From IMG/VR virus record IMGVR_UViG_2897328257_000002: a DNA stretch of 35,771 nucleotides. One strand, given 5' to 3'. Under the pieces are notes generated by a model. It was not told the origin of the DNA. It ran no database searches and saw only the letters and a list, made by a program, of their open reading frames with translations. The position numbers and the translations under genes are program-made. This document shows, in pieces, positions 1 to 33,151 of this stretch (position 1 is the first letter of the stretch; the number at the start of each line of letters is the position of its first letter). This DNA comes from a virus (taxonomy: Duplodnaviria > Heunggongvirae > Uroviricota > Caudoviricetes).

Positions 1-1044
1 TTAGCTGTTTGCTTCAAGGCTCGTTGCTTTAGTGGAAAGTGTGGCTAATGGATTGAAACGCAGTGCTGTTTCAAGGTGATCAGGGGCAAGATGTGCATAG
101 CGCATAGTCATTTTTATATCGTGGTGGCCCAGGATTTTTTGCAAAGCAAGAATGTTCCCGCCGGACATCATAAAATGTGCTGCGAACGTATGGCGTAGAA
201 CGTGGGTAAGTTGCCCGCGTGGTAGTACGATCGAGGTTCTATCCATCACGGCTAAAAACTGGAAGTAGCAGTCAGTAAATAATTTGAAGCCGTCTAGGGC
301 AACAATTTCCTCATACAGCTCTTTGCTGATCGGAATGCTGCGGTTTTTTTTGCCCTTAGTTCTGACAAATGTGATTCGGTATTTCGTGACCTGAGAACGT
401 GTCAGGTTCACAGCTTCGCGCCAACGTGCTCCGGTGCTCAAGCAGATTTTGACGACAAGAGCGAGCAGGGGGCTTTGGCGTTGACAGTCGAACAGAAGCT
501 CTGTGATTTGTTCATGTGTCAGCCAGGCCATTTCTTTTTCGGCAATGGTGAATTTACGCATGTTCTCCAGTGGATTTGGTGCTGTCCATTCACCGAGGCG
601 GGCTAACTCGCTAAAGACCCCACTCAGATAGCTTTGCTCCAGATTGATAGTTACCGGGCTGGCTCCTTTCTTCCATTTTTCGCTGAAGTAGATTTCACCC
701 GTCAGGCGCTTATCGCGATAGTGCGCGAACATTTTGGATGTTAGATCGGTGGCGAGGGGATTTCCGAGAGCATCGACCATCAGTATCAACTTGTCGTAAA
801 CATGCTCGCCAGCGGTCAGGGATTTGCCGTGCAGTTTGAACCAGAGTTCAACGATATCCTGTAGAGTTCGACGGTCTACCGATTCACCAAGCCAAGGCTT
901 AGCTTCTGCCTCCTCCATCGTGTGACGCTCAAAAGCTAATGCTTCGCCTTTGGTAGCGAACTGTTTACGCACGCGACGCCCGCTGCGTCCGGCGGGGTAA
1001 CATTCGCAAAGCCATTTCCCTGTGGTTAGTTTTCGTACTGCCAT
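1..1044 (-). CDS. int: Tyrosine integrase (P2/186-type phage integrase)
   Basis: Minus-strand ORF ending at TAA (1..3). First ATG is at 1042..1044 (product MAVRKLTTGKW...), so the 6-frame ORF 1..1200 is a 5' over-extension. C-terminal region LRHTFAAHFMMSGGNILALQKILGHHDIKMTMRYAHL fits the tyrosine recombinase catalytic core. Position at the prophage end next to the repressor gene. Confidence 0.9.
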   Translation of the reverse strand: MAVRKLTTGKWLCECYPAGRSGRRVRKQFATKGEALAFERHTMEEAEAKPWLGESVDRRTLQDIVELWFKLHGKSLTAGEHVYDKLILMVDALGNPLATDLTSKMFAHYRDKRLTGEIYFSEKWKKGASPVTINLEQSYLSGVFSELARLGEWTAPNPLENMRKFTIAEKEMAWLTHEQITELLFDCQRQSPLLALVVKICLSTGARWREAVNLTRSQVTKYRITFVRTKGKKNRSIPISKELYEEIVALDGFKLFTDCYFQFLAVMDRTSIVLPRGQLTHVLRHTFAAHFMMSGGNILALQKILGHHDIKMTMRYAHLAPDHLETALRFNPLATLSTKATSLEANS

Positions 1045-1232
1045 AAAAAATGCCCTCCAGTAGAGAGCATTTTCACTGTATGTATAACCAGTGTCAATGT
1101 ATGAAATCCTACGACCATACATCTCACTGAAGCCATAATTAAGTTGGCTATTCTTTTTGCTATGTGAGCATGTAATTTTTGCGGTTAACCTGCGGCTCAT
1201 TTTTATTTTAGGCGCAGATATAAAAGCAAAAG

Positions 1233-1424
1233 TTATCGTGAGTTTTTAGTACAGATTTTTTTGGATTTACTAATAGTTCCATCATTGCAAACAAATTTGC
1301 CATCTGAGGTACAGTGAGAAACACCTCCCTTTTTCCCTGAACAGGGATAATTTCTAGCATAGGTAGTTAGTGGGTTTAATAACAAAGAACATGACAAAAC
1401 CACAAAAAATACCTTACCAAGCAT
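1233..1424 (-). CDS. Small secreted cysteine-rich protein (signal peptide plus ~40 aa Lys/Cys-rich mature peptide), unknown function
   Basis: ATG at 1422..1424 preceded by GGAGG (1431..1435) with 6 nt spacing. N-terminus [23 protein letters not shown] looks like a Sec signal peptide; the mature part has 4 Cys and many Lys. Lies 17 bp downstream of the cI stop on the same strand; locally AT-rich. Confidence 0.5.
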
Positions 1425-1440
1425 AGTTTTCCTCCCGGTA

Positions 1441-2010
1441 CTATTTAACATACTTGACTGTTAAACTTATAATTTTACCAATTATTTCAATGTCTTCTAT
1501 CTTGCATTCGAAGGCTCTGTTTCCACCCTCGACGAAGATTCTTCCACCGGGTAAACGAGTAATGTCACGGATCGTTATTTCGCCATCAATACTTATTACC
1601 CATTTACCATCACGTATATCATCAAATTCCTTATCACAAATAAATTCAGAATTATTATCTGTGATTGCAAAAAGATTCTTGAATGCCGACGGTAGAAATT
1701 CCCTATCGAAAATATAAAAACCGTCTTCACACAAGGCCCCATCAGATAATACATATTTAGCAACTTCCATAGTATTTGTATTTGCTGATGCTTGCTTTGA
1801 ACCATGCCCTGTTGTTAGCCAATTAAGCGAGGTGCCCGTTTCAAGGGCGCACTGGATTACCCAATCTGCTGGAAAAATATCACGCATATAGCGCGTTGCC
1901 ATGGTGCTCTTAGAAACACCTAAATGATCACAGAGAGCCTGACGGGTACCGAACCCATATGCTTCAACTAAACGTTCTATGGCTTTCTTACCGCCGCTAT
2001 TGAAATCCAC
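1441..2010 (-). CDS. cI: CI-type immunity repressor (186-like, HTH N-terminal domain plus C-terminal domain)
   Basis: ORF 1441..2097 has no in-frame ATG near its 5' end. HTH-like segment [23 protein letters not shown]. Probable GTG start at 2008..2010 behind GGAGGA (2013..2018); the start could lie as far upstream as 2097. TAG stop at 1441..1443. Divergent from the apl-like gene. Confidence 0.7.
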
Positions 2011-3997: not shown

Positions 3998-4224
3998 TGG
4001 CTGATGCAATGGATCTCGTACAGCAGCGCGTTGAAGAAGAACGCCAGCGCCATATTCGTGCTGCCCGTGCCAAAACACCGGGCGTGTCTCGCGTGCTTTG
4101 TATTGAATGTGAAGCGCCAATTCCGCCAGCACGACGCCGCGCCATTCCGGGAGTGCAGCTTTGCATTACCTGCCAGGAAATCGCAGAGCTGAAAGGCAAA
4201 CATTACAACGGAGGTGCTGTATGA
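3997..4224 (+). CDS. TraR/DksA-family C4 zinc-finger protein
   Basis: 75 aa with CIECEAPIP...(17 aa)...CITCQE, a four-cysteine finger at the C-terminus typical of phage TraR/DksA-like proteins. Stop overlaps the Dam start (ATGA). Confidence 0.75.
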   Translation: MADAMDLVQQRVEEERQRHIRAARAKTPGVSRVLCIECEAPIPPARRRAIPGVQLCITCQEIAELKGKHYNGGAV

Positions 4225-5078
4225 GCACCATCCTGAAATGGGCGGGAAATAAAACCGCCATTATGTCCGAACTGAAAAAACACCTTCCTGCTGGCCCGCG
4301 ACTGGTTGAACCTTTCGCGGGTTCCTGTGCTGTGATGATGGAGACGGATTACCCCAGCTATCTGGTTGCGGATATTAATCCTGATTTAATCAACCTCTAT
4401 AAAAAGGTTGCCGCTGATTGTGAATCGTTTATATCTCGCGCCAGAGTTTTATTTGAGATCGCAAACAGGGAGGTGGCTTATTACAACATAAGGCAGGAGT
4501 TTAATTACTCCACTGAAATTACTGATTTCATGAAAGCGGTATATTTCCTGTATCTCAATCGTCACGGTTACCGTGGTTTATGTCGCTATAACAAGAGCGG
4601 GCATTTCAACATTCCCTACGGTAATTATAAAAATCCGTATTTCCCTGAAAAAGAAATTCGCGCATTTGCAGAAAAGGCCCAGCGAGCAACGTTTATCTGC
4701 GCCAGCTTTGATGAAACGCAGGCGATGTTGAAGGCGGGGGATGTGGTGTATTGCGATCCGCCGTATGACGGTACGTTTTCCGGCTATCACACTGACGGCT
4801 TCACTGAAGATGACCAGTATCACCTGGCATCTGTTCTTGAACATCGGTCATCAGAAGGACATCCGGTCATTGTTTCTAACAGTGACACATCCCTGATCCG
4901 TTCGCTGTATCGCAATTTTACTCACCACTACATCAAGGCAAAACGCAGCATCGGTGTGGCAGCTGGCGAGGGTAAATCAGCAACAGAAATCATTGCTGTT
5001 TCCGGGCCGCGCTGCTGGGTGGGATTTGATTATTCGCGTGGCGTGGATAGTTCTGCCGTGTACGGAGTACGTGCATGA
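4221..5078 (+). CDS. DNA adenine (N6) methyltransferase, Dam/D12 class
   Basis: ATG at 4221 behind GGAGG (4211..4215). N-terminus [35 protein letters not shown] (AdoMet-binding FxGxG-like motif) and catalytic DPPY (CDPPYDG). Stop overlaps the gene A start. Confidence 0.85.
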
Positions 5079-7489
5079 GTCATGCCGATATGAACAACTG
5101 CTGCGGCTTTAACGAAGCTGCCGCATCGTTCTCATGGAACAGCCCGAAAAAGGCCATTAACCCTTATCTGGACCCGGTGGAAGTTGCGCCGGTTTCTACG
5201 CTTTCAAACCTGATCACTCTGTACGCTGCCGATAACGAGCAGGAACAGCTGCGCCGTGAGGCGCTGAGTGATCAGGTCTGGGAGCGTTATTTCTTTAATG
5301 AATCCCGTGATCCTGTCCAGCGCGAAATGGAACAGGATAAGCTCATTAGTCGGGCAAAGCTGGCGCATGAGCAGCAGCGTTTTAATCCGGATATGGTCAT
5401 TCTGGCGGACGTCAACGCCCAGCCTTCCCATATCAGCAAGCCGCTGATGCAACGTATTGAATACTTCAGCAGCCTTGGCAGGCCAAAGGCTTATTCCCGC
5501 TATTTACGTGAGACGATTAAGCCATGTCTGGAACGACTGGAGCATGTACGCGACAGTCAGCTATCTGCATCTTTTCGCTTTATGGCAAGCCATGAAGGGC
5601 TGGACGGCCTGCTGATCCTGCCTGAAATGAGTCAGGATCAGGTGAAACGCCTGTCCACCCTGGTAGCTGCGCATATGAGTATGTGCCTTGATGCCGCTTG
5701 TGGCGATTTGTATGCCACCGATGACGTTAAGCCAGAAGAAATCCGCAATACATGGGAAAGGGTGGCAGCGGAAACCCTGCGTCTGGATGTAATCCCGCCT
5801 GCGTTTGAGCAACTCCGTCGGAAAAGAAACCGCCGTAAACCCGTGCCCTATGAACTCATTCCGGGTTCGCTGGCGCGTATGTTGTGCGCCGACTGGTGGT
5901 ACCGGAAATTATGGAAAATGCGTTGCGAATGGCGGGAAGAGCAGTTGCGTGCTGTCTGCCTTGTCAGCAAAAAAGCATCTCCCTATGTCAGCTATGAAGC
6001 CGTGTTGCATAAACGTGAGCAGCGCCGTAAGTCGCTGGAGTTTTTCCGTTCTCATGAACTGGTGAACGAAGACGGCGACACGCTGGACATGGAGGATGTG
6101 GTAAACGCCAGCAGCAGCAACCCTGCGCATCGCCGCAATGAGATGATGGCCTGTGTTAAAGGTCTGGAGCTTATCGCGGAAATGCGCGGTGACTGCGCCG
6201 TTTTCTACACCATCACCTGTCCGTCACGTTTCCATTCCACGCTAAATAACGGCAGGCCCAACCCGACCTGGACAAATGCGACGGTAAGACAAAGCAGCGA
6301 TTATCTGGTCGGTATGTTTGCTGCATTTCGTAAGGCGATGCACAAAGCCGGGTTGCGCTGGTATGGCGTGCGGGTGGCTGAGCCGCATCACGACGGCACA
6401 GTTCACTGGCACCTGTTGTGTTTCATGCGCAAAAAAGACCGCCGCGCCATTACTGCATTGTTGCGTAAGTTTGCTATCCGTGAAGACCGCGAGGAGCTGG
6501 GCAATAACACGGGGCCGCGCTTTAAGTCTGAGCTGATTAACCCGCGCAAAGGAACGCCGACAAGCTACATAGCGAAATACATCAGTAAGAACATTGACGG
6601 GCGTGGTCTGGCTGGCGAGATCAGCAAGGAAACGGGTAAATCTCTGCGTGATAACGCTGAATACGTGAACGCCTGGGCGTCTTTGCATCGTGTTCAGCAA
6701 TTCCGCTTCTTTGGCATTCCGGGGCGTCAGGCTTACCGTGAACTGCGATTGCTGGCTGGTCAGGCGGCAAGGCAACAGGGGGACAAAAAAGCAGGTGCGC
6801 CGGTACTGGATAACCCGCGCCTTGATGCCATCTTGGCTGCTGCTGATGCTGGTTGTTTTGCCACCTACATCATGAAGCAGGGCGGCGTACTGGTTCCCCG
6901 TAAATATCACCTCATCAGAACCGCTTATGAAATCAACGAAGAGCCGACCGCCTATGGCGATCACGGCATTCGTATTTATGGCATCTGGTCACCCATTGCA
7001 GAGGGCAAGATCTGCACTCATGCAGTGAAGTGGAAAATGGTTCGTAAAGCCGTTGACGTTCAGGAGGCGGCAGCCGACCAGGGCGCTTGCGCCCCTTGGA
7101 CTCGTGGCAATAACTGTCCCCTTGCTGAAAATTTGAACCAACAAGGGAAAGACAAATCAGCTGATGGGGATACCAGAACGGACATTACCCACATGGATGA
7201 CAAGGAGTTGCACGATTACCTGCACAGTATGAACAAAAAAGAGCGCCGGGAACTGGCTGCAAGGTTACGCCTGGTGAAACCGAAACGGCGTAGAGACTAC
7301 AAACAGCGAATTACAGACCATCAACGACAGCAGCTCGTCTATGAACTGAAGTCCAGAGGATTTGATGGCAGCGAGAAAGAGGTCGATTTACTCCTTCGCG
7401 GCGGCAGTATTCCGTCAGGAGCAGGCCTGCGTGTCTTCTATCGGAACCAGCGTTTGCAGGAAGATGATAAGTGGCGGAACCTGTATTAA
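5075..7489 (+). CDS. A: Replication initiation endonuclease (P2 gpA / 186 A family, rolling-circle HUH protein)
   Basis: 804 aa; HUH-like motif [10 protein letters not shown] and tyrosine-containing YIAKYISK segment; position and size match gene A of P2-like phages. Confidence 0.9.
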
Positions 7490-7581
7490 TTACGCGGGTT
7501 AACAATTCGTGCTCTTAATAATACCAGGCATATCAGGCTGATGAACGTAAAAAAACGTTTTACATCAGTAAGATTATTATA

Positions 7582-7601
7582 TACTGTAAATATAAACAGT
7601 G
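7582..7601 (+). promoter_or_regulatory. LexA (SOS) box TACTGTAAATATAAACAGTG
   Basis: CTGT-N8-ACAG palindrome with an AT-rich spacer, close to consensus TACTGTATATATATACAGTA. Lies about 40 bp upstream of the RBS/ATG at 7643, with TTTACA (7559..7564) 17 bp upstream as a possible -35. Confidence 0.7.
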
Positions 7602-7642
7602 GTTATCTATACAGTATTGTTTGCGGTGTCATAGGAGGAAAG

Positions 7643-7831
7643 ATGCAGGACTATTTTTTGGAGTCTTTGAAGCTCCAGCGCATTGATTTTTTTCTTAAGC
7701 TTGTAGCGGCTAGTGAGTGTAGTGATGAAGAGAAGGGGCTGGCCCTGCAGTGGGTTTCTGAATTGACTGATGAACTCATGGCAAAAATCAGAAGCCACGA
7801 ATACAACCGCTCAATGGATGTCATCAGCTGA
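7643..7831 (+). CDS. Small hypothetical protein (62 aa) downstream of the LexA box; possible SOS-induced antirepressor-type factor
   Basis: ATG at 7643 with AGGAGG (7633..7638). First ORF after the SOS box. The antirepressor (Tum-like) function is inferred from position only. Confidence 0.45.
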   Translation: MQDYFLESLKLQRIDFFLKLVAASECSDEEKGLALQWVSELTDELMAKIRSHEYNRSMDVIS

Positions 7832-7841
7832 GGTGACTTTT

Positions 7842-8075
7842 ATGCGCATTGAAATAATGATCGATAAAGAGCAGAAGATTAGCCAGTCTACCCTTGACGC
7901 TCTGGAGTCCGAGCTTTACCGCAACCTGCAACCCATCTATCCCAAGACCGCTATCCGCATCCGTAAAGGGTCGGCAAACGGCGTTGAGCTGAGTGGCTTA
8001 AAGCTTGATGAAGACAAAAAGCGGGTGATGGAAATTATGAAACAGGTTTGGGAAGACGACAGCTGGCTGCACTAA
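7842..8075 (+). CDS. dinI: DinI-family protein (DinI/MsgA-like)
   Basis: 77 aa, MRIEIMIDKEQKISQSTLDALESELYRNL...RVMEIMKQVWEDDSWLH. Aligns along its length with E. coli DinI (MRIEVTIAKT...ALAGELSRR...KQRISEILQETWESADDWF). GAGGTG RBS before the ATG at 7842. Confidence 0.8.
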   Translation: MRIEIMIDKEQKISQSTLDALESELYRNLQPIYPKTAIRIRKGSANGVELSGLKLDEDKKRVMEIMKQVWEDDSWLH

Positions 8076-8193: not shown

Positions 8194-8409
8194 GTGCTGG
8201 AACGTTTAACCCTTGGCGACTGGGTCTTCTTTCAACGCCCAAAGGAGTGTGGCGGAGGTTTTTGGTTGGGCCGCATCTATGAAGACTGCTTCTGGCTTGA
8301 GCTGGAATTTCCCGTTTCGCTATATGACGGCCTGGGGTTTTTGATGGAAGTCACTAGGGTAGAGCAGAGAAGTGATGAGGTTGACGCGAATTATCCCCTG
8401 TTTGATTAA
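8194..8409 (+). CDS. Hypothetical protein (71 aa from GTG); possibly a nonsense-interrupted gene starting at ATG 8149
   Basis: ORF from GTG 8194. An in-frame ATG at 8149 (GAGG upstream) is separated from it only by a TAG at 8191..8193. Confidence 0.3.
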   Translation: MLERLTLGDWVFFQRPKECGGGFWLGRIYEDCFWLELEFPVSLYDGLGFLMEVTRVEQRSDEVDANYPLFD

Positions 8410-8457: not shown

Positions 8458-9069
8458 ATGGATTTAGTCTTTAAAGTTCTGGCTTCGTTGGGTGGGGTGT
8501 CTTTTGTTGCATCTGGCATATTTGTTTGGATCGGGAAAGTTTATTTAGAAAGATATAAGTCGCGGCTAAACAAAGATATTGCTGAATTTCAATCACAACT
8601 GAGTGCAACTAATGAAAGAATAAAGGCTAAGTTAGACAATTCTGTTTATGTAACGAAAGCGTATTTTGATAAGGAGTTATCAGCATATAGTCTCATTTGG
8701 AATTCGATGTTTGAAACCAGAGAAAGCGTGCTTAAGCTGAGGCCTGCGCTGGATCATGTTGACCCCAACGAACCATTTGAAGAGAGAAAATTTAGAAGGT
8801 TGAAAGTTTTTTTTGATGCATTTAACACTTTTGTTACAAGTGTTGAATCTAACAAACCGTTCATCTCACCAGAGGTTTATATAATCTTGGACCGTTTCCG
8901 GAAGGAATGCCTTTCAGAGTCAATATCGTTTAAGCATAGCGATCCAGAATTTGACGGGCAAAATTATTGGAAAGAGGCGGAGTTGAACCGTACAACCATC
9001 ACCAAGCTTTTTGATGAGACGTGTGATGCAATTCGAGACAGGATGCACACATTAACTGTGGTTACGTAG
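8458..9069 (+). CDS. Membrane-anchored hypothetical protein (203 aa; one N-terminal TM helix, then a charged, partly coiled-coil domain)
   Basis: ATG at 8458. N-terminus LVFKVLASLGGVSFVASGIFVWIG is hydrophobic; no recognised motif. AT-rich cargo region; followed by a terminator. Confidence 0.6.
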   Translation: MDLVFKVLASLGGVSFVASGIFVWIGKVYLERYKSRLNKDIAEFQSQLSATNERIKAKLDNSVYVTKAYFDKELSAYSLIWNSMFETRESVLKLRPALDHVDPNEPFEERKFRRLKVFFDAFNTFVTSVESNKPFISPEVYIILDRFRKECLSESISFKHSDPEFDGQNYWKEAELNRTTITKLFDETCDAIRDRMHTLTVVT

Positions 9070-9248: not shown

Positions 9249-9316
9249 TGCGCGCTAGGTATAAGTGTGTAAAATAATTCCAAAATAAATCATCCTAATG
9301 AAGTGAGAGGGTAATA

Positions 9317-10966
9317 ATGTTAGTCAAGAAAAATAAAAATTATAGTTTATATTTTTTAATTACAAATAATCAACAGATATCTGATTCTGGTAATTATATA
9401 AAAATAGTCCCATCAAGAAGCGATTGGAATGATTTTGGATATTTGAGTAGAGTCGAAATATCTATTTTTAATAAAAAAGAGTGTAAGGATATAATTTCAC
9501 TGAATGGTTATATTGGTTTTTTGAATTCAGAGGAGGAACGAAATGGAAAAGCAGAACTGATAAGGCGAGTGAAGAAAAAGGAAGAATCTAATTTAAAGGA
9601 TGAGGGGTTTAATGATTATTTTGTCATGCTTCAGGATATGAATAATTATCGAAGACTAGTAAGATTTTTTGGGGTGAATGAATCCAAATATATATTAAAT
9701 TTCATTAATGATGTTGTTTCTAAGAAAAGTGACGCTAGTGCAGAGAATTTGAGGAAAAAAGCAATCTCTTCTGATATCTTTAATAAATCTTTCATTAGAG
9801 AGTCTGAGTCGTATTTTACTTTCAAAAATGCAGGAACAGTTCTTTCCGGTATTCAATATGAGGAGTTGGGTAATTTATCACAGCACATCAAGATTAGCTA
9901 TTCGAATAAAGTTAATGAAGAAGATGTATCTTATGTTTTTAATTTTGATCACGAGCATGATTTACCAAAAAGAATTTCCATAATTATAGGCGAGAATGGT
10001 GTAGGAAAAAGCCAAACGCTTAGAGAAATCGCATTGGCTGCGATTAAAGGAAAGGATAATTTGGTGGCTGTAGTTGATTCTAACGGTGTAAGCATTGAAG
10101 AACGAATTCAAATTAGTAGGCTCATTGCTTTTTCTCCAACAAATGAAAGTAAGTGTTCATTTCCAACCGATAAAAGAATAAAATCATTGATATGGTACAA
10201 AAGATTGACTTTAAATCGTGAATCAAAATCCAAATTAAACTTGAATGATTTAATAGTGCAACTAGCGAGGAGTAACGACGCTATCGGCTATAATCAAAGG
10301 TGGAATATATTTGTTGATGCACTGAGTGTTCTAAATAGTAACAACGATTTAGTAATCAAATGTAGCGGTGAAAATTCACCATTTGTTAAATTAAATGAGC
10401 TTAATTCTCGAGGCGAAGAATCCAGACTATCATTATATTCTGAAATTATTCTCTCTGGCGAGCCTTTGAGGCTTGTTGAAAATAAATGTTACCCTTTGAG
10501 TAGTGGGGAAATATCGTTTATTAAGTTTTGTGTACAAGTCTGTTTGTATATTGAGAATGGGACTCTTCTATTAATAGATGAGCCAGAAACACATCTCCAT
10601 CCTTCATTTATTAATAAATTTATGGCATTGCTTGATAATTTATTAGAAAAGACAGGCTCTTCAGCTATCATAGCAACGCATTCGGTTTATCTTGTTCGGG
10701 AGGTTTTTAAGGAGCAAGTGACAATACTCAGAAGACGAGATGATGGGGTAATTGTTAGCGAAAAACCGAGATTGAGTACTTTTGGGGCGAATATAGGAAA
10801 TATCTCATATTTTGTTTTCGGTGAGAGTGAACCAACTCAAATTTTAAATAAAGTAAAAAATAATATAATTGCAAAGAATATGTCTTGGGATGATGTTGAA
10901 TCTAAATATAGCGAGGACTTATCACTTAATGTATTAACTGCGTTGAGAAATGAAATAGGCAATTGA
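9317..10966 (+). CDS. ABC-type (AAA_15/AAA_21-like) ATPase with ~220-aa N-terminal extension; PtuA-like candidate defence ATPase
   Basis: 549 aa. Walker A GENGVGKS (~residue 225), signature-like LSSGE, Walker B/D-loop LLLIDEPETHLHP, H-loop IIATHS. N-terminal ~220 aa has no recognisable motif. Very AT-rich; stop is 1 nt before the next start. Confidence 0.75.
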   Translation: MLVKKNKNYSLYFLITNNQQISDSGNYIKIVPSRSDWNDFGYLSRVEISIFNKKECKDIISLNGYIGFLNSEEERNGKAELIRRVKKKEESNLKDEGFNDYFVMLQDMNNYRRLVRFFGVNESKYILNFINDVVSKKSDASAENLRKKAISSDIFNKSFIRESESYFTFKNAGTVLSGIQYEELGNLSQHIKISYSNKVNEEDVSYVFNFDHEHDLPKRISIIIGENGVGKSQTLREIALAAIKGKDNLVAVVDSNGVSIEERIQISRLIAFSPTNESKCSFPTDKRIKSLIWYKRLTLNRESKSKLNLNDLIVQLARSNDAIGYNQRWNIFVDALSVLNSNNDLVIKCSGENSPFVKLNELNSRGEESRLSLYSEIILSGEPLRLVENKCYPLSSGEISFIKFCVQVCLYIENGTLLLIDEPETHLHPSFINKFMALLDNLLEKTGSSAIIATHSVYLVREVFKEQVTILRRRDDGVIVSEKPRLSTFGANIGNISYFVFGESEPTQILNKVKNNIIAKNMSWDDVESKYSEDLSLNVLTALRNEIGN

Positions 10967-10967
10967 A

Positions 10968-11831
10968 ATGAATAAATTAAAAAGACCTGTTTTTAAAGAT
11001 TATTCTGCATTTAAAAAACTATCTGCAAATAAGAGATTAAAACATCATTCTGTTCTGAATGGACAGGATACATTTATACTTAATGCATATAGATCGTACA
11101 TAAAGAATAAAGGATATCTTAATGTCAATTCTTGTGGCGTATTGAGTAACAATATTGCTGAAGCTTTGAAATATTATTATAACAATCCCGCAAAGTGTTT
11201 ATCTATAATTGATGATATAAGAGCAGCTAATTCTAATTCTCTATGTCCAATGTGTGGTTCAATGCATAGCGGGACTTTGGATCATGTTTTACCCAAGGAA
11301 AACTATCCAGAATTTTCTTTATTCACTAAGAATTTGGTTCCTGCTTGCAAATGTAATACTTTCAAAAGTACTACTATAGCTAATTCTGCAGGCCATCGGA
11401 TGCTGCATCCATATTTTGATAATATATTAAAAAAAAGATTAATATGTGCTAATTTTTCTAAATTAGGGCGAACACCTACAATTGATGTAAAAATCATAAT
11501 TGACCCAATGTCACCAGAATATAACAATGTTAAGTATCATCTTGATAATGTTGTTATCAAGAATAATATTAAGGGGTATTTGTCTGAACAATGGGAGTCG
11601 TTTTACTTATATCCTGAGCTTGTTATTAGAGGACTGAATAAGAGTCTTTCTACTTATAGCGATGTATATGAGTTGTTGACTCGCGAGTTGTTGCTGTTGG
11701 ATGAAAAACATAAAGGTAAAAATAATTGGAATTCGGTTTTTGTAGCTGGGTTAATTCGACCTGATGTGATTAGGTGGATACTCTGTGAATTACATTTAGG
11801 TAACAGAAGTCCAGACGGTCGTCTCATATGA
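10968..11831 (+). CDS. HNH endonuclease-domain protein; PtuB-like candidate defence nuclease
   Basis: 287 aa with CPMCGSMHSGTLDHVLPKENYP...NLVPACKCN...H...LHPYF, an HNH core with cysteine zinc-binding pairs. Translationally coupled to the upstream ATPase. Confidence 0.7.
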   Translation: MNKLKRPVFKDYSAFKKLSANKRLKHHSVLNGQDTFILNAYRSYIKNKGYLNVNSCGVLSNNIAEALKYYYNNPAKCLSIIDDIRAANSNSLCPMCGSMHSGTLDHVLPKENYPEFSLFTKNLVPACKCNTFKSTTIANSAGHRMLHPYFDNILKKRLICANFSKLGRTPTIDVKIIIDPMSPEYNNVKYHLDNVVIKNNIKGYLSEQWESFYLYPELVIRGLNKSLSTYSDVYELLTRELLLLDEKHKGKNNWNSVFVAGLIRPDVIRWILCELHLGNRSPDGRLI

Positions 11832-11841
11832 TTTTTTGCAT

Positions 11842-11867
11842 CTTCAGCGTGTATCTGCACGCTGAAG
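11842..11867. other. Perfect 10-bp inverted repeat (CTTCAGCGTG - TATCTG - CACGCTGAAG) between the HNH gene and the Q stop
   Basis: Seen directly; T-run lies on the 5' side on the plus strand, so not a canonical terminator for either flanking gene. Possible cassette boundary or protein-binding site. Confidence 0.4.
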
Positions 11868-11938
11868 AAATTCATAAAAACTGCTGGCTATTAATAACTT
11901 TTTTTAGTTGTGTTAAAGAACCTCATTTAGTTATTACG

Positions 11939-12970
11939 TTAAGTAGCTAGTTTATAACTATCAAATTTAACAATGTTCTCACTTACCAATTTATTTATTT
12001 CCATCATTCTTTTTTGTAACGGTATTAACTCGTTACGTACAAACACCAGGCTCGCCTTCTCCACATCCCCAAACCCCCCGACATTATTAGGCATAATCCC
12101 CATCATTTGCGGTGGCACACGATGCGCCGCCATCATGTCATCCCGGCTCACGTTCTTGATGTTCAGAAACTCATCCTTCGCCGCGACTTCTGACAACGGG
12201 ATGATCTGAAGCCCGTCCTTTTTGCCGTTAGGCGAGTACATAAACAGATTGCGGAAGTTACCTGGTCCTTTGGCGCTTTTCATCGCATTGCGGAGGTTGT
12301 TCACATCCTCCTGGTTTTGCGCGGCATCGGTCATGTACATGATGAAGCCTGCATGACTGCCGTTAATGTAATACTTTCGGCGGAACAGCGTGGCGGACTC
12401 GTTGAGCAGGGCTGACGGAATGGCAGAAAGGTAACCTGGCAGGCCGTAGATCTCCTGGTTGATGTCCGGTTCCATCAGATGAAAAATGCTGCCTTTCGTG
12501 AACTGATACGGCTGGGTTGTCATACCGTATTGCACAAACCAGTAGGTATCCAGGTCTAACCCGCGTCGGGTGTATTTTGCCAGAGCAGGCTCAAGAGCGA
12601 TGACCTCTCCGAACCGGTTTGTGCGTTTCTCCAGGTAAGCGTTACCAAATACCAGATAATCCTGCACAAAACGTGAAAAAGCCTGCTGGCTGAGCAGCGG
12701 GTGAGGGATGTAGGTACTGGTCAGAATGTTGCACTTTACTGCAATCGGGGAGCTATGATGTACGGCAGCGCGGAAGGTTCGCGCCAGTCCGTCAAAACTC
12801 ACTGGCGGCTCATACCAGCGATCTGTCTGTACGCATTCCACATAGTCCAGTAGTTCACGGCGGTCCAGAACCGGAACGGGATCGCCGAAGCTGAATGCTT
12901 CGGCTGAAGCCTGGTTTTTATGCTGGATCTGTTTCGTCGACGCAGCGCGGTTTTTCTTACTCTTTCCCAT
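11939..12970 (-). CDS. Q: Portal protein (P2 gpQ family)
   Basis: 343 aa from ATG 12968..12970; start overlaps the P stop (TGATG); size and order (Q downstream of P, both leftward) as in P2. Confidence 0.9.
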   Translation of the reverse strand: MGKSKKNRAASTKQIQHKNQASAEAFSFGDPVPVLDRRELLDYVECVQTDRWYEPPVSFDGLARTFRAAVHHSSPIAVKCNILTSTYIPHPLLSQQAFSRFVQDYLVFGNAYLEKRTNRFGEVIALEPALAKYTRRGLDLDTYWFVQYGMTTQPYQFTKGSIFHLMEPDINQEIYGLPGYLSAIPSALLNESATLFRRKYYINGSHAGFIMYMTDAAQNQEDVNNLRNAMKSAKGPGNFRNLFMYSPNGKKDGLQIIPLSEVAAKDEFLNIKNVSRDDMMAAHRVPPQMMGIMPNNVGGFGDVEKASLVFVRNELIPLQKRMMEINKLVSENIVKFDSYKLAT

Positions 12971-32993: not shown

Positions 32994-33039
32994 AACAAAA
33001 AACCCATCAACCTTGAACCGAAATGGCGGGGTTGATGGG
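32994..33039 (-). terminator. Rho-independent terminator for ybjL (10-bp stem CCCATCAACC/GGTTGATGGG, 17-nt loop, U-tract on minus strand)
   Basis: Inverted repeat 33003..33012 / 33030..33039; on the minus strand the stem is followed by TTTTTTGTT; about 110 bp downstream of the ybjL stop. Confidence 0.5.
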
Positions 33040-33151
33040 CTCCACAAAATGGGGACATCAAAGAAAAGCAGTGGCACTAATTAAGACTGATGCCCTGCGG
33101 AAAAGTTCTGCGGTTGTGCAAAAAAATTTCATTTTCAGGGCAACTTCAGTT

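Follow-up and report, generated by a model that had tools for sequence, protein, structure and literature searches.

An SOS-controlled tumA–tumB operon predicted to trigger induction of a Fels-2-like prophage

The stretch of DNA analysed here (the window: 35,771 nucleotides (nt) of a virus of the Caudoviricetes, IMG/VR record IMGVR_UViG_2897328257_000002) is a P2/186-family prophage of Fels-2 type. Its region 7559–8075 (all coordinates are positions in the window) holds a promoter overlapped by LexA-binding sites (SOS boxes), a gene for a 62-residue protein, tumA, and a gene of the DinI family, tumB. We assign a probability of about 0.9 to the reading that this locus is an SOS operon through which a Fels-2-like prophage couples its induction to host DNA damage. 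The anatomy of the locus, the homology of its products, purifying selection on its genes and conservation of its operator were established here; experiments elsewhere have established that induction of the prophage DuoHS needs the gene for TumA as well as cleavage of LexA, and that Tum of phage 186 blocks DNA binding by the repressor CI. The tum system as such is already known, both from the literature and from the knockout of an identical gene. A double operator, a LexA-boxed promoter in front of the integrase gene int and the pattern in which TumA and CI types pair are modest additions.

In the proposed circuit, LexA in a lysogen would sit on a double operator (7582–7616) that covers the −10 hexamer and start region of the promoter right of gene A. 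DNA damage would activate RecA and cause LexA to cleave itself, upon which the tum promoter would fire and TumA and TumB would be made. TumA would then bind and inactivate the 186-type CI, a repressor with no matched self-cleavage domain, and so release the early lytic promoter. The DinI-like TumB would be accessory, probably tuning RecA filament activity, and a separate LexA-repressed promoter before int would probably supply integrase for excision in the same SOS response.

A sequence-only reading of this DNA had proposed an SOS box overlapping a promoter, a 62-residue open reading frame (ORF) and a DinI-family gene behind it, a position right of gene A as in 186, and from these a LexA-repressed antirepressor operon like tum of 186. 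Its outline held up, with one-base corrections of coordinates. The proposed likeness to 186 tum is now backed by homology to Tum residues 5–48, by a 186-type CI and by a deletion in DuoHS.

The tum promoter and its LexA box

The promoter region comprises the following elements.

5075–7489, replication gene A (PF05840, E 1.6e-127)
7550–7555, plus strand, conserved A-tract 5′ of the −35 hexamer, seen in the upstream alignment of relatives
7559–7564, plus strand, tum promoter (counterpart of 186 p95), −35 hexamer TTTACA; TTTAC does not vary among 52 unique relatives, and the layout is that of 186 p95
7582–7587, plus strand, −10 hexamer TACTGT, doubling as left arm of SOS box 1; invariant in relatives, with the same overlap of hexamer and LexA site as at the annotated −10 of 186 p95
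7582–7601, plus strand, SOS (LexA) box 1, TACTGTAAATATAAACAGTG; top LexA-matrix score in the window, present in 78 of 83 loci

The operon thus begins to the right of gene A, which ends at 7489, and the same order of gene A followed by tum is found in 186, PSP3, Fels-2 and DuoHS. The two promoter hexamers are separated by a spacer of 17 nt, which is conserved at only 67% among the 52 unique relatives.

The bare core of box 1, CTGT-N8-ACAG, occurs once in the window and at least once in 37 of 100 shuffled sequences; it is weak proof of a LexA site, because 0.42 occurrences are expected by chance. Judged over all 20 positions, box 1 lies within three mismatches of the LexA consensus TACTGTATATATATACAGTA, and such sites were found in none of 100 shuffles. 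When the window was scored with a LexA matrix, as the sequence-only reading had suggested, box 1 ranked first (3.9 at 7582), followed by a site at 1074 (4.1), a site at 7597 (7.7) and, at some distance, the next at 10.8. Three window sites scored 7.72 or better, against one in total over 20 shuffles. This matrix is approximate, having been rebuilt from Escherichia coli sites, and serves for ranking only: it did not reproduce published heterology-index values, giving 4.98 for recA (4.31 published) and 0.81 for umuDC (2.77 published). LexA is predicted to occupy both boxes of the double operator.

Conservation of the operator

Conservation was assessed in 83 related loci, namely 80 viral contigs retrieved through the conserved TumB protein together with 186, Fels-2 and PSP3; 52 unique upstream regions made up the operator alignment. 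A LexA box lies 225–295 nt 5′ of tumB in 78 of the 83 loci, with invariant arms TACTGT and ACAGT and a variable centre of eight bases. Of the five loci that lack it, two carry a point mutation from CAG to CAT in the box, the upstream DNA of another two is rearranged, and the last lies on a contig that ends too early. The alignment resolves into conserved blocks, consisting of the A-tract, TTTAC, the SOS boxes, and AGGAGG with the ATG, while the leader drifts (78%).

Three loci carry isolated changes. In L055 and L058, box 1 is found ~260 nt 5′ of tumB with the CAG-to-CAT change (TACTGTAAATATAAACATTG), and in L067 the tumA frame is broken by the loss of one base in a poly-T run. These could be escape or decay variants, or possibly sequencing errors.

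Related circuits of known function

The closest experimental counterpart is DuoHS, a prophage of E. coli HS. Its tum gene, ECHS_RS04495, encodes a protein identical to TumA of the window at 62 of 62 residues; the gene order is the same, and the double operator, CI and the LexA-boxed int promoter are near-identical. DuoHS differs in TumB, which is 85% identical, and in the cargo between tumB and the portal gene. The Δtum mutation of the Phollow study is a deletion of ECHS_RS04495, for which primer NHR28 joins the ATG of the gene to its TGA and leaves the DinI gene intact (PMC12055606). Neither Δtum nor lexA(Ind−) cells showed lysis or viral foci after mitomycin C (PMC12055606). With TumA identical and the operator and CI near-identical, the hypothesis has thus already been tested, with a positive outcome, in an essentially identical circuit.

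The classical system is that of 186, whose Tum is a LexA-controlled anti-CI factor (PMC7708051) and in whose record tum is annotated as repressed by LexA and as an inhibitor of DNA binding by CI. As in the window, tum with its annotated SOS-dependent promoter p95 lies right of gene A and the −10 hexamer TACTGT doubles as the left arm of the LexA box. The two phages share a homologous antirepressor segment (Tum 5–48), a homologous DinI-like segment and the same CI family, although TumA and Tum resemble each other only weakly in pairwise comparison. In 186 both parts are fused in a Tum of 146 residues, from which internal starts also yield the DinI part alone, whereas the window has separate genes. 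Downstream, 186 carries orf97 and the window carries different cargo.

The window therefore does not have the single 146-residue fusion of 186; its two ORFs represent the PSP3/Fels-2 variant. In Fels-2 and PSP3, tum is split by a stop codon and the upstream gene is the antirepressor (Lemire et al. 2011, PMC3121763). The PSP3 annotation has a tumB and a tumA, the latter with the remark “similar to 5' end 186 tum; UV induction of prophage”, and PSP3 tumA/tumB and Fels-2 STM2728/STM2726.1 show the same two-gene layout behind a LexA box as the window. Fels-2 has 91% identical DNA over the region and a TumA that differs at 2 of 62 residues; TumA of PSP3 is a different sequence type and is paired with a different CI of 286 residues.

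A more distant parallel is offered by the Gifsy prophages, where a LexA-repressed operon encodes a DinI homologue and a small antirepressor (GfoA/GftA) of a non-cleavable repressor (PMC3121763). These are lambdoid prophages in which the gene order is reversed, with the dinI homologue first, and the likeness was drawn from their description.

TumA corresponds to the antirepressor part of Tum

The small gene and its ribosome-binding site are placed as follows.

7633–7638, plus strand, ribosome-binding site AGGAGG of tumA; invariant in relatives, 4 nt before the ATG
7643–7831, plus strand, tumA, encoding an acidic protein of 62 residues, the antirepressor part of Tum (phrog_698, E 6e-38; profile match to 186 Tum)

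Strong purifying selection, specific to the reading frame, marks this ORF as a real gene. Its ratio of nonsynonymous to synonymous substitution rates (dN/dS) is 0.064 over 42 unique sequences, and the corresponding ratio of polymorphisms (pN/pS) is 0.09 in frame, compared with 1.7–2.0 in the other two frames. Its matched family phrog_698 is of unknown function, Pfam has no family for it, and databases name the gene “hypothetical protein” or “levan regulatory protein”.

BLASTP of the 62-residue protein against 186 Tum and PSP3 TumA returned no alignment; these sequences are too short for it, and Smith–Waterman comparison with shuffles and a family profile were needed. The Smith–Waterman alignment of TumA with 186 Tum covers residues 6–41 of both proteins at z = 8.8, a score reached by none of 2000 shuffles. 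An exhaustive search extended the TumA family to 67 representatives, down to ~33% identity. A profile built from 29 of the family representatives and the window protein matched 186 Tum at residues 5–48 with 35.7 bits (E 8.4e-10); among 4000 shuffles no score exceeded 8.7 bits. TumA and Tum have in common a hydrophobic helix, a cysteine and then the motif LAL-x-W/L-[IV]-[AS]-E-L. By profile and alignment, TumA therefore corresponds, as a protein in its own right, to Tum's N-terminal part. PSP3 TumA did not match the Fels-2-type profile (4.5 bits) and connects only by way of 186 Tum (z = 8.2).

An AlphaFold2 model of TumA predicts a two-helix hairpin (helices 2–23 and 28–61) with a predicted local distance difference test score (pLDDT) of 87. 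Foldseek, run with this model against the PDB, returned nothing more specific than helical hairpins of a generic kind (best E 1.6), and a sequence-profile search of the PDB with TumA found nothing.

The repressor and the presumed target of TumA

The immunity repressor is encoded at the window's left end.

1441–2010, minus strand, cI, 186-type immunity repressor and presumed target of TumA (PF07022 and PF16452)

The start of cI was set by homology to DuoHS CI, the ORF being open up to 2097. Window CI is 33% identical to 186 CI, matches PDB entry 2FJR (E 1e-31) and is near-identical to DuoHS CI. No peptidase or self-cleavage domain was matched in it, PF07022 and PF16452 being the only domains found.

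We compared TumA and CI types across the related loci. In 60 loci with a Fels-2-type TumA (82–100% identical) and a readable CI, the repressors form 12 clusters that share less than 70% identity. From one cluster to another, the C-terminal domains have a median identity of 28%, and the N-terminal domains one of 62%, with a nearly constant helix-turn-helix segment. A Fels-2-type TumA is accompanied by a Fels-2-class CI N-terminal domain in 59 of the 60 loci, and all 13 loci with a PSP3-type TumA have a PSP3-class CI. Three recombinant loci (L046, L081 and L082) carry gene A of the 186/PSP3 lineage (36% identity), yet have a Fels-2-type TumA and a Fels-2-class CI. Given this pairing, the type of TumA tracks the distant repressor gene and not its physical neighbour. 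In locus L030 a Fels-2-type TumA stands beside a 186-like CI (63% identical to 186 CI); this pair is mismatched or else indicates broad specificity. The conservation pattern of the CI domains, taken with the net negative charge of TumA, suggests that TumA contacts the conserved N-terminal domain of CI.

Several points weigh against the account of the locus given above. The −10 hexamer is weak, TACTGT matching TATAAT at three of six positions, and for this reason the tum promoter was not flagged by a generic promoter scan. The experimental evidence comes from DuoHS and 186 and not from the exact sequence of the window, and the lexA(Ind−) result in DuoHS demonstrates dependence on the SOS response, which is not proof of LexA at the tum promoter. 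Binding of TumA to CI would be carried over from 186 on the strength of homology over only ~44 residues, and the occurrence of one TumA type with 12 CI clusters, and with the CI of L030, makes its target surface ambiguous.

The last two points lend some weight to the idea that TumA is needed for induction without binding CI, acting instead as a transcription factor or through another target (Apl, CII, LexA or RecA). A protein that stays nearly invariant across 12 divergent CI classes and L030 is not what one would expect of a specific protein partner, and direct contact between TumA and CI in the Fels-2 type is an extrapolation by analogy. On the other side, TumA is homologous to a region of 186 Tum, a known CI-binding antirepressor; its type follows the CI class (59 of 60 and 13 of 13 loci) even where the gene A lineage differs; and N-terminal domains that are ~62% identical, with an almost constant helix-turn-helix, offer a plausible common surface. 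We consider action without CI binding unlikely and retain CI as the presumed target of TumA.

TumB and the gene junction

The second gene of the operon follows closely.

7830–7836, plus strand, ribosome-binding site GAGGTGA of tumB, overlapping the tumA stop codon (read from the sequence)
7842–8075, plus strand, tumB, encoding a DinI-family protein of 77 residues (PF06183, E 2.6e-23)

TumB covers profile positions 1–63 of 63 in PF06183 with 82.6 bits (cut-off 24.2) and matches the E. coli DinI structure 1GHH (E 8e-9). It is 41% identical to residues 71–145 of 186 Tum and 91% identical to PSP3 TumB. An acidic C-terminal segment, WEDDSW, is present, and V69, W70, E71, D72, S74 and W75 are invariant in four TumB/Tum sequences. 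Like tumA, the gene is under purifying selection (dN/dS = 0.046). The 186 record annotates the DinI-like part with “modulates SOS induction”, and TumB probably tunes RecA filament activity.

The clear homology of TumB to DinI, and a small gene that bears uninformative database names and belongs to no Pfam family, could mean that the operon only modulates the SOS response as an accessory, with the DinI-like protein tuning host RecA and the 62-residue protein having no part in induction. This is very unlikely, as deletion of the identical 62-residue gene in DuoHS abolished induction although the DinI gene was kept, and the homology of TumA is to the part of 186 Tum that acts as antirepressor. 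Distant relatives speak against it as well. TumA homologues of 33–43% identity in other P2-like genomes lie right of gene A and directly behind LexA boxes (TACTGGATGTATATACAGTT and TACTGTATATGCATACAGTG), and they are followed by no DinI gene. The core of the module is therefore the LexA box with TumA, and TumB is accessory.

That tumA and tumB form one gene, a Tum-like fusion made by programmed frameshifting or hidden by a sequencing error at the junction, has in its favour that 186 Tum is a single protein of 146 residues and that the DinI reading frame is open from 7770, overlapping the end of the small ORF, but can be dismissed: at the junction a clean stop codon is followed by a ribosome-binding site and then by an ATG, the distance from one gene to the next is variable (3, 8, 9, 10, 11 or 12 nt) so that their frame relation is not conserved, the genes are split in hundreds of independent assemblies, TumA-only relatives exist, and 186 itself produces the DinI part separately from an internal GTG.

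A hairpin (GTCATC...GGTGAC) at 7820–7837 takes in both the stop codon of tumA and the ribosome-binding site of tumB. It was flagged by the terminator scan, a reading we rejected because relatives differ in sequence there. The hairpin, which is not conserved in other TumA subtypes, might couple translation of tumB to that of tumA in this subtype. No Rfam family was found in the tum region.

Two DinI-less TumA-like proteins (L087, 690–745; L089, 3150–3207) end in a common tail, KNPQ-GG...G-LQ. The DNA of this tail forms a G+C-rich hairpin, CCCCC-N5-GGGGG, beside an A-run at the overlap with the convergent ogr gene; possibly this tail is simply terminator DNA that has been read as protein.

A second overlapping box makes a double operator

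The sequence-only reading had listed one SOS box, and a second that overlaps it is absent there.

7597–7616, plus strand, SOS box 2, CAGTGGTTATCTATACAGTA; ranked third in the window by the LexA matrix, found in each of the 52 unique relatives

Box 2 overlaps box 1 at an offset of 15 nt, such that the 16-nt cores have G7599 in common. It is kept in 52 of 52 unique Fels-2-type relatives with an invariant CAG arm. In contrast, 186 and PSP3 have one SOS box each.

When plasmids were searched by BLAST with the box segment, the matching regions lay upstream of cea, the gene for colicin E1, and of pst, the gene for pesticin. Both genes likewise have two overlapping LexA boxes at an offset of 15 nt, and the cea operator is identical to that of the window at 30 of 35 bases by our own count on the aligned sequences. 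On the approximate matrix, both window boxes score comparably to the two boxes of cea and pst. Double SOS boxes of the colicin type are known to be bound cooperatively by two LexA dimers, which is described as giving tight repression (PMC2994835). The operators differ in what they control, which is a bacteriocin for cea and pst and a prophage antirepressor in the window, and also in placement: box 1 of the window overlaps the −10 hexamer, whereas by our reading of the cea promoter the cea boxes would lie just 3′ of the −10. The window thus has a double operator of the colicin E1/pesticin type, at which LexA may, by analogy, bind cooperatively.

A LexA box at int

The second-best LexA site of the window lies in front of int, within a promoter of its own.

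1–1044, minus strand, int
1069–1097, minus strand, int promoter TTGACA-17-GAAAAT with a LexA box in its spacer (promoter scan, 10 of 12 matches)
1074–1093, minus strand, LexA box CACTGGTTATACATACAGTG; second-best LexA score in the window

A stretch of 25 nt separates this promoter from the int ATG (1044) downstream of it. Its LexA box is kept in DuoHS and in seven further related loci with the same int type, with substitutions at non-critical positions, and this includes loci with diverged surroundings and a different box centre. Related loci with other int types do not have it. DNA similarity to other phages ends exactly at the −35 hexamer of this promoter. Together these observations suggest that the integrase is under direct SOS control.

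Between cI and int lies an ORF for 72 residues (1233–1451, minus strand) with a signal-peptide-like N-terminus and several cysteines, for which no family match was found. Since this small ORF parts int from the cI transcript, a promoter belonging to int itself would make sense.

The double operator, with tighter, threshold-like control, the LexA-repressed int promoter and the action of TumA on at least 12 CI classes could together amount to an SOS regulon of three sites and so to more than the 186 model provides, a proposal we put forward tentatively and at less than even odds. We found no earlier description of the double operator, the LexA-boxed int promoter or the pairing of one TumA with many CIs in a body of literature that leaves out Bunny et al. 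2002 (J Bacteriol 184:6235) and the P2 review of Christie and Calendar; literature searches on tumA/tumB and on LexA-controlled int in Fels-2 gave nothing useful.

Of 5426 complete E. coli genomes, 1126 (~21%) carry the module, and RefSeq annotates the small gene in them as hypothetical. The circuit would explain how very common prophages of E. coli, Salmonella and Klebsiella respond to DNA-damaging antibiotics with a repressor that has no matched self-cleavage domain. Its practical value is one of annotation, the 62-residue gene being called hypothetical and lacking a Pfam family although it is the induction trigger. If confirmed, the double operator and the LexA-boxed int promoter would refine models of the induction threshold and of excision timing in P2-like prophages. 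If TumA does act on many CI classes, one SOS signal could cross-induce co-resident prophages of this kind that differ in immunity.

Genome context and downstream genes

Among phage records, the window comes closest to Escherichia phage Cartapus (97.6%), to many Klebsiella prophages and to Fels-2 (about 91%). Beyond the genes already described, the following were placed.

2156–2359, apl-like gene
2415–2933, cII
4161–5078, dam methylase gene
9317–11831, Septu-like pair of ATPase and nuclease, a candidate anti-phage system (PADLOC PDC-M01A, 549 residues, AAA_21/PtuA-like ATPase; PDC-M01B, 287 residues)

Two ORFs follow tumB, one at 8194–8409 (phrog_2100, 71 residues, GTG start) and one at 8458–9069 (phrog_26391, 203 residues). 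Neither has a Pfam or PADLOC match, and both may be on the same transcript as tum. Further on, the variable cargo position, which separates the tum operon from the portal gene, is taken up by a low-GC island (9300–12100, 28–35% GC) that encodes the Septu-like pair. The terminator scan gave no convincing terminator after tumB before 10367, and because none was found between tumB and the island, SOS-induced read-through into the island is possible.

Near the right end of the window lies the host gene for the small RNA RybB (rybB; 32994–33072, minus strand; Rfam RF00110, 105 bits). DuoHS is inserted between rcdA and ybjL in E. coli HS, and since rybB flanks the prophage of the window, the latter is likely to have been inserted at the same chromosomal site.

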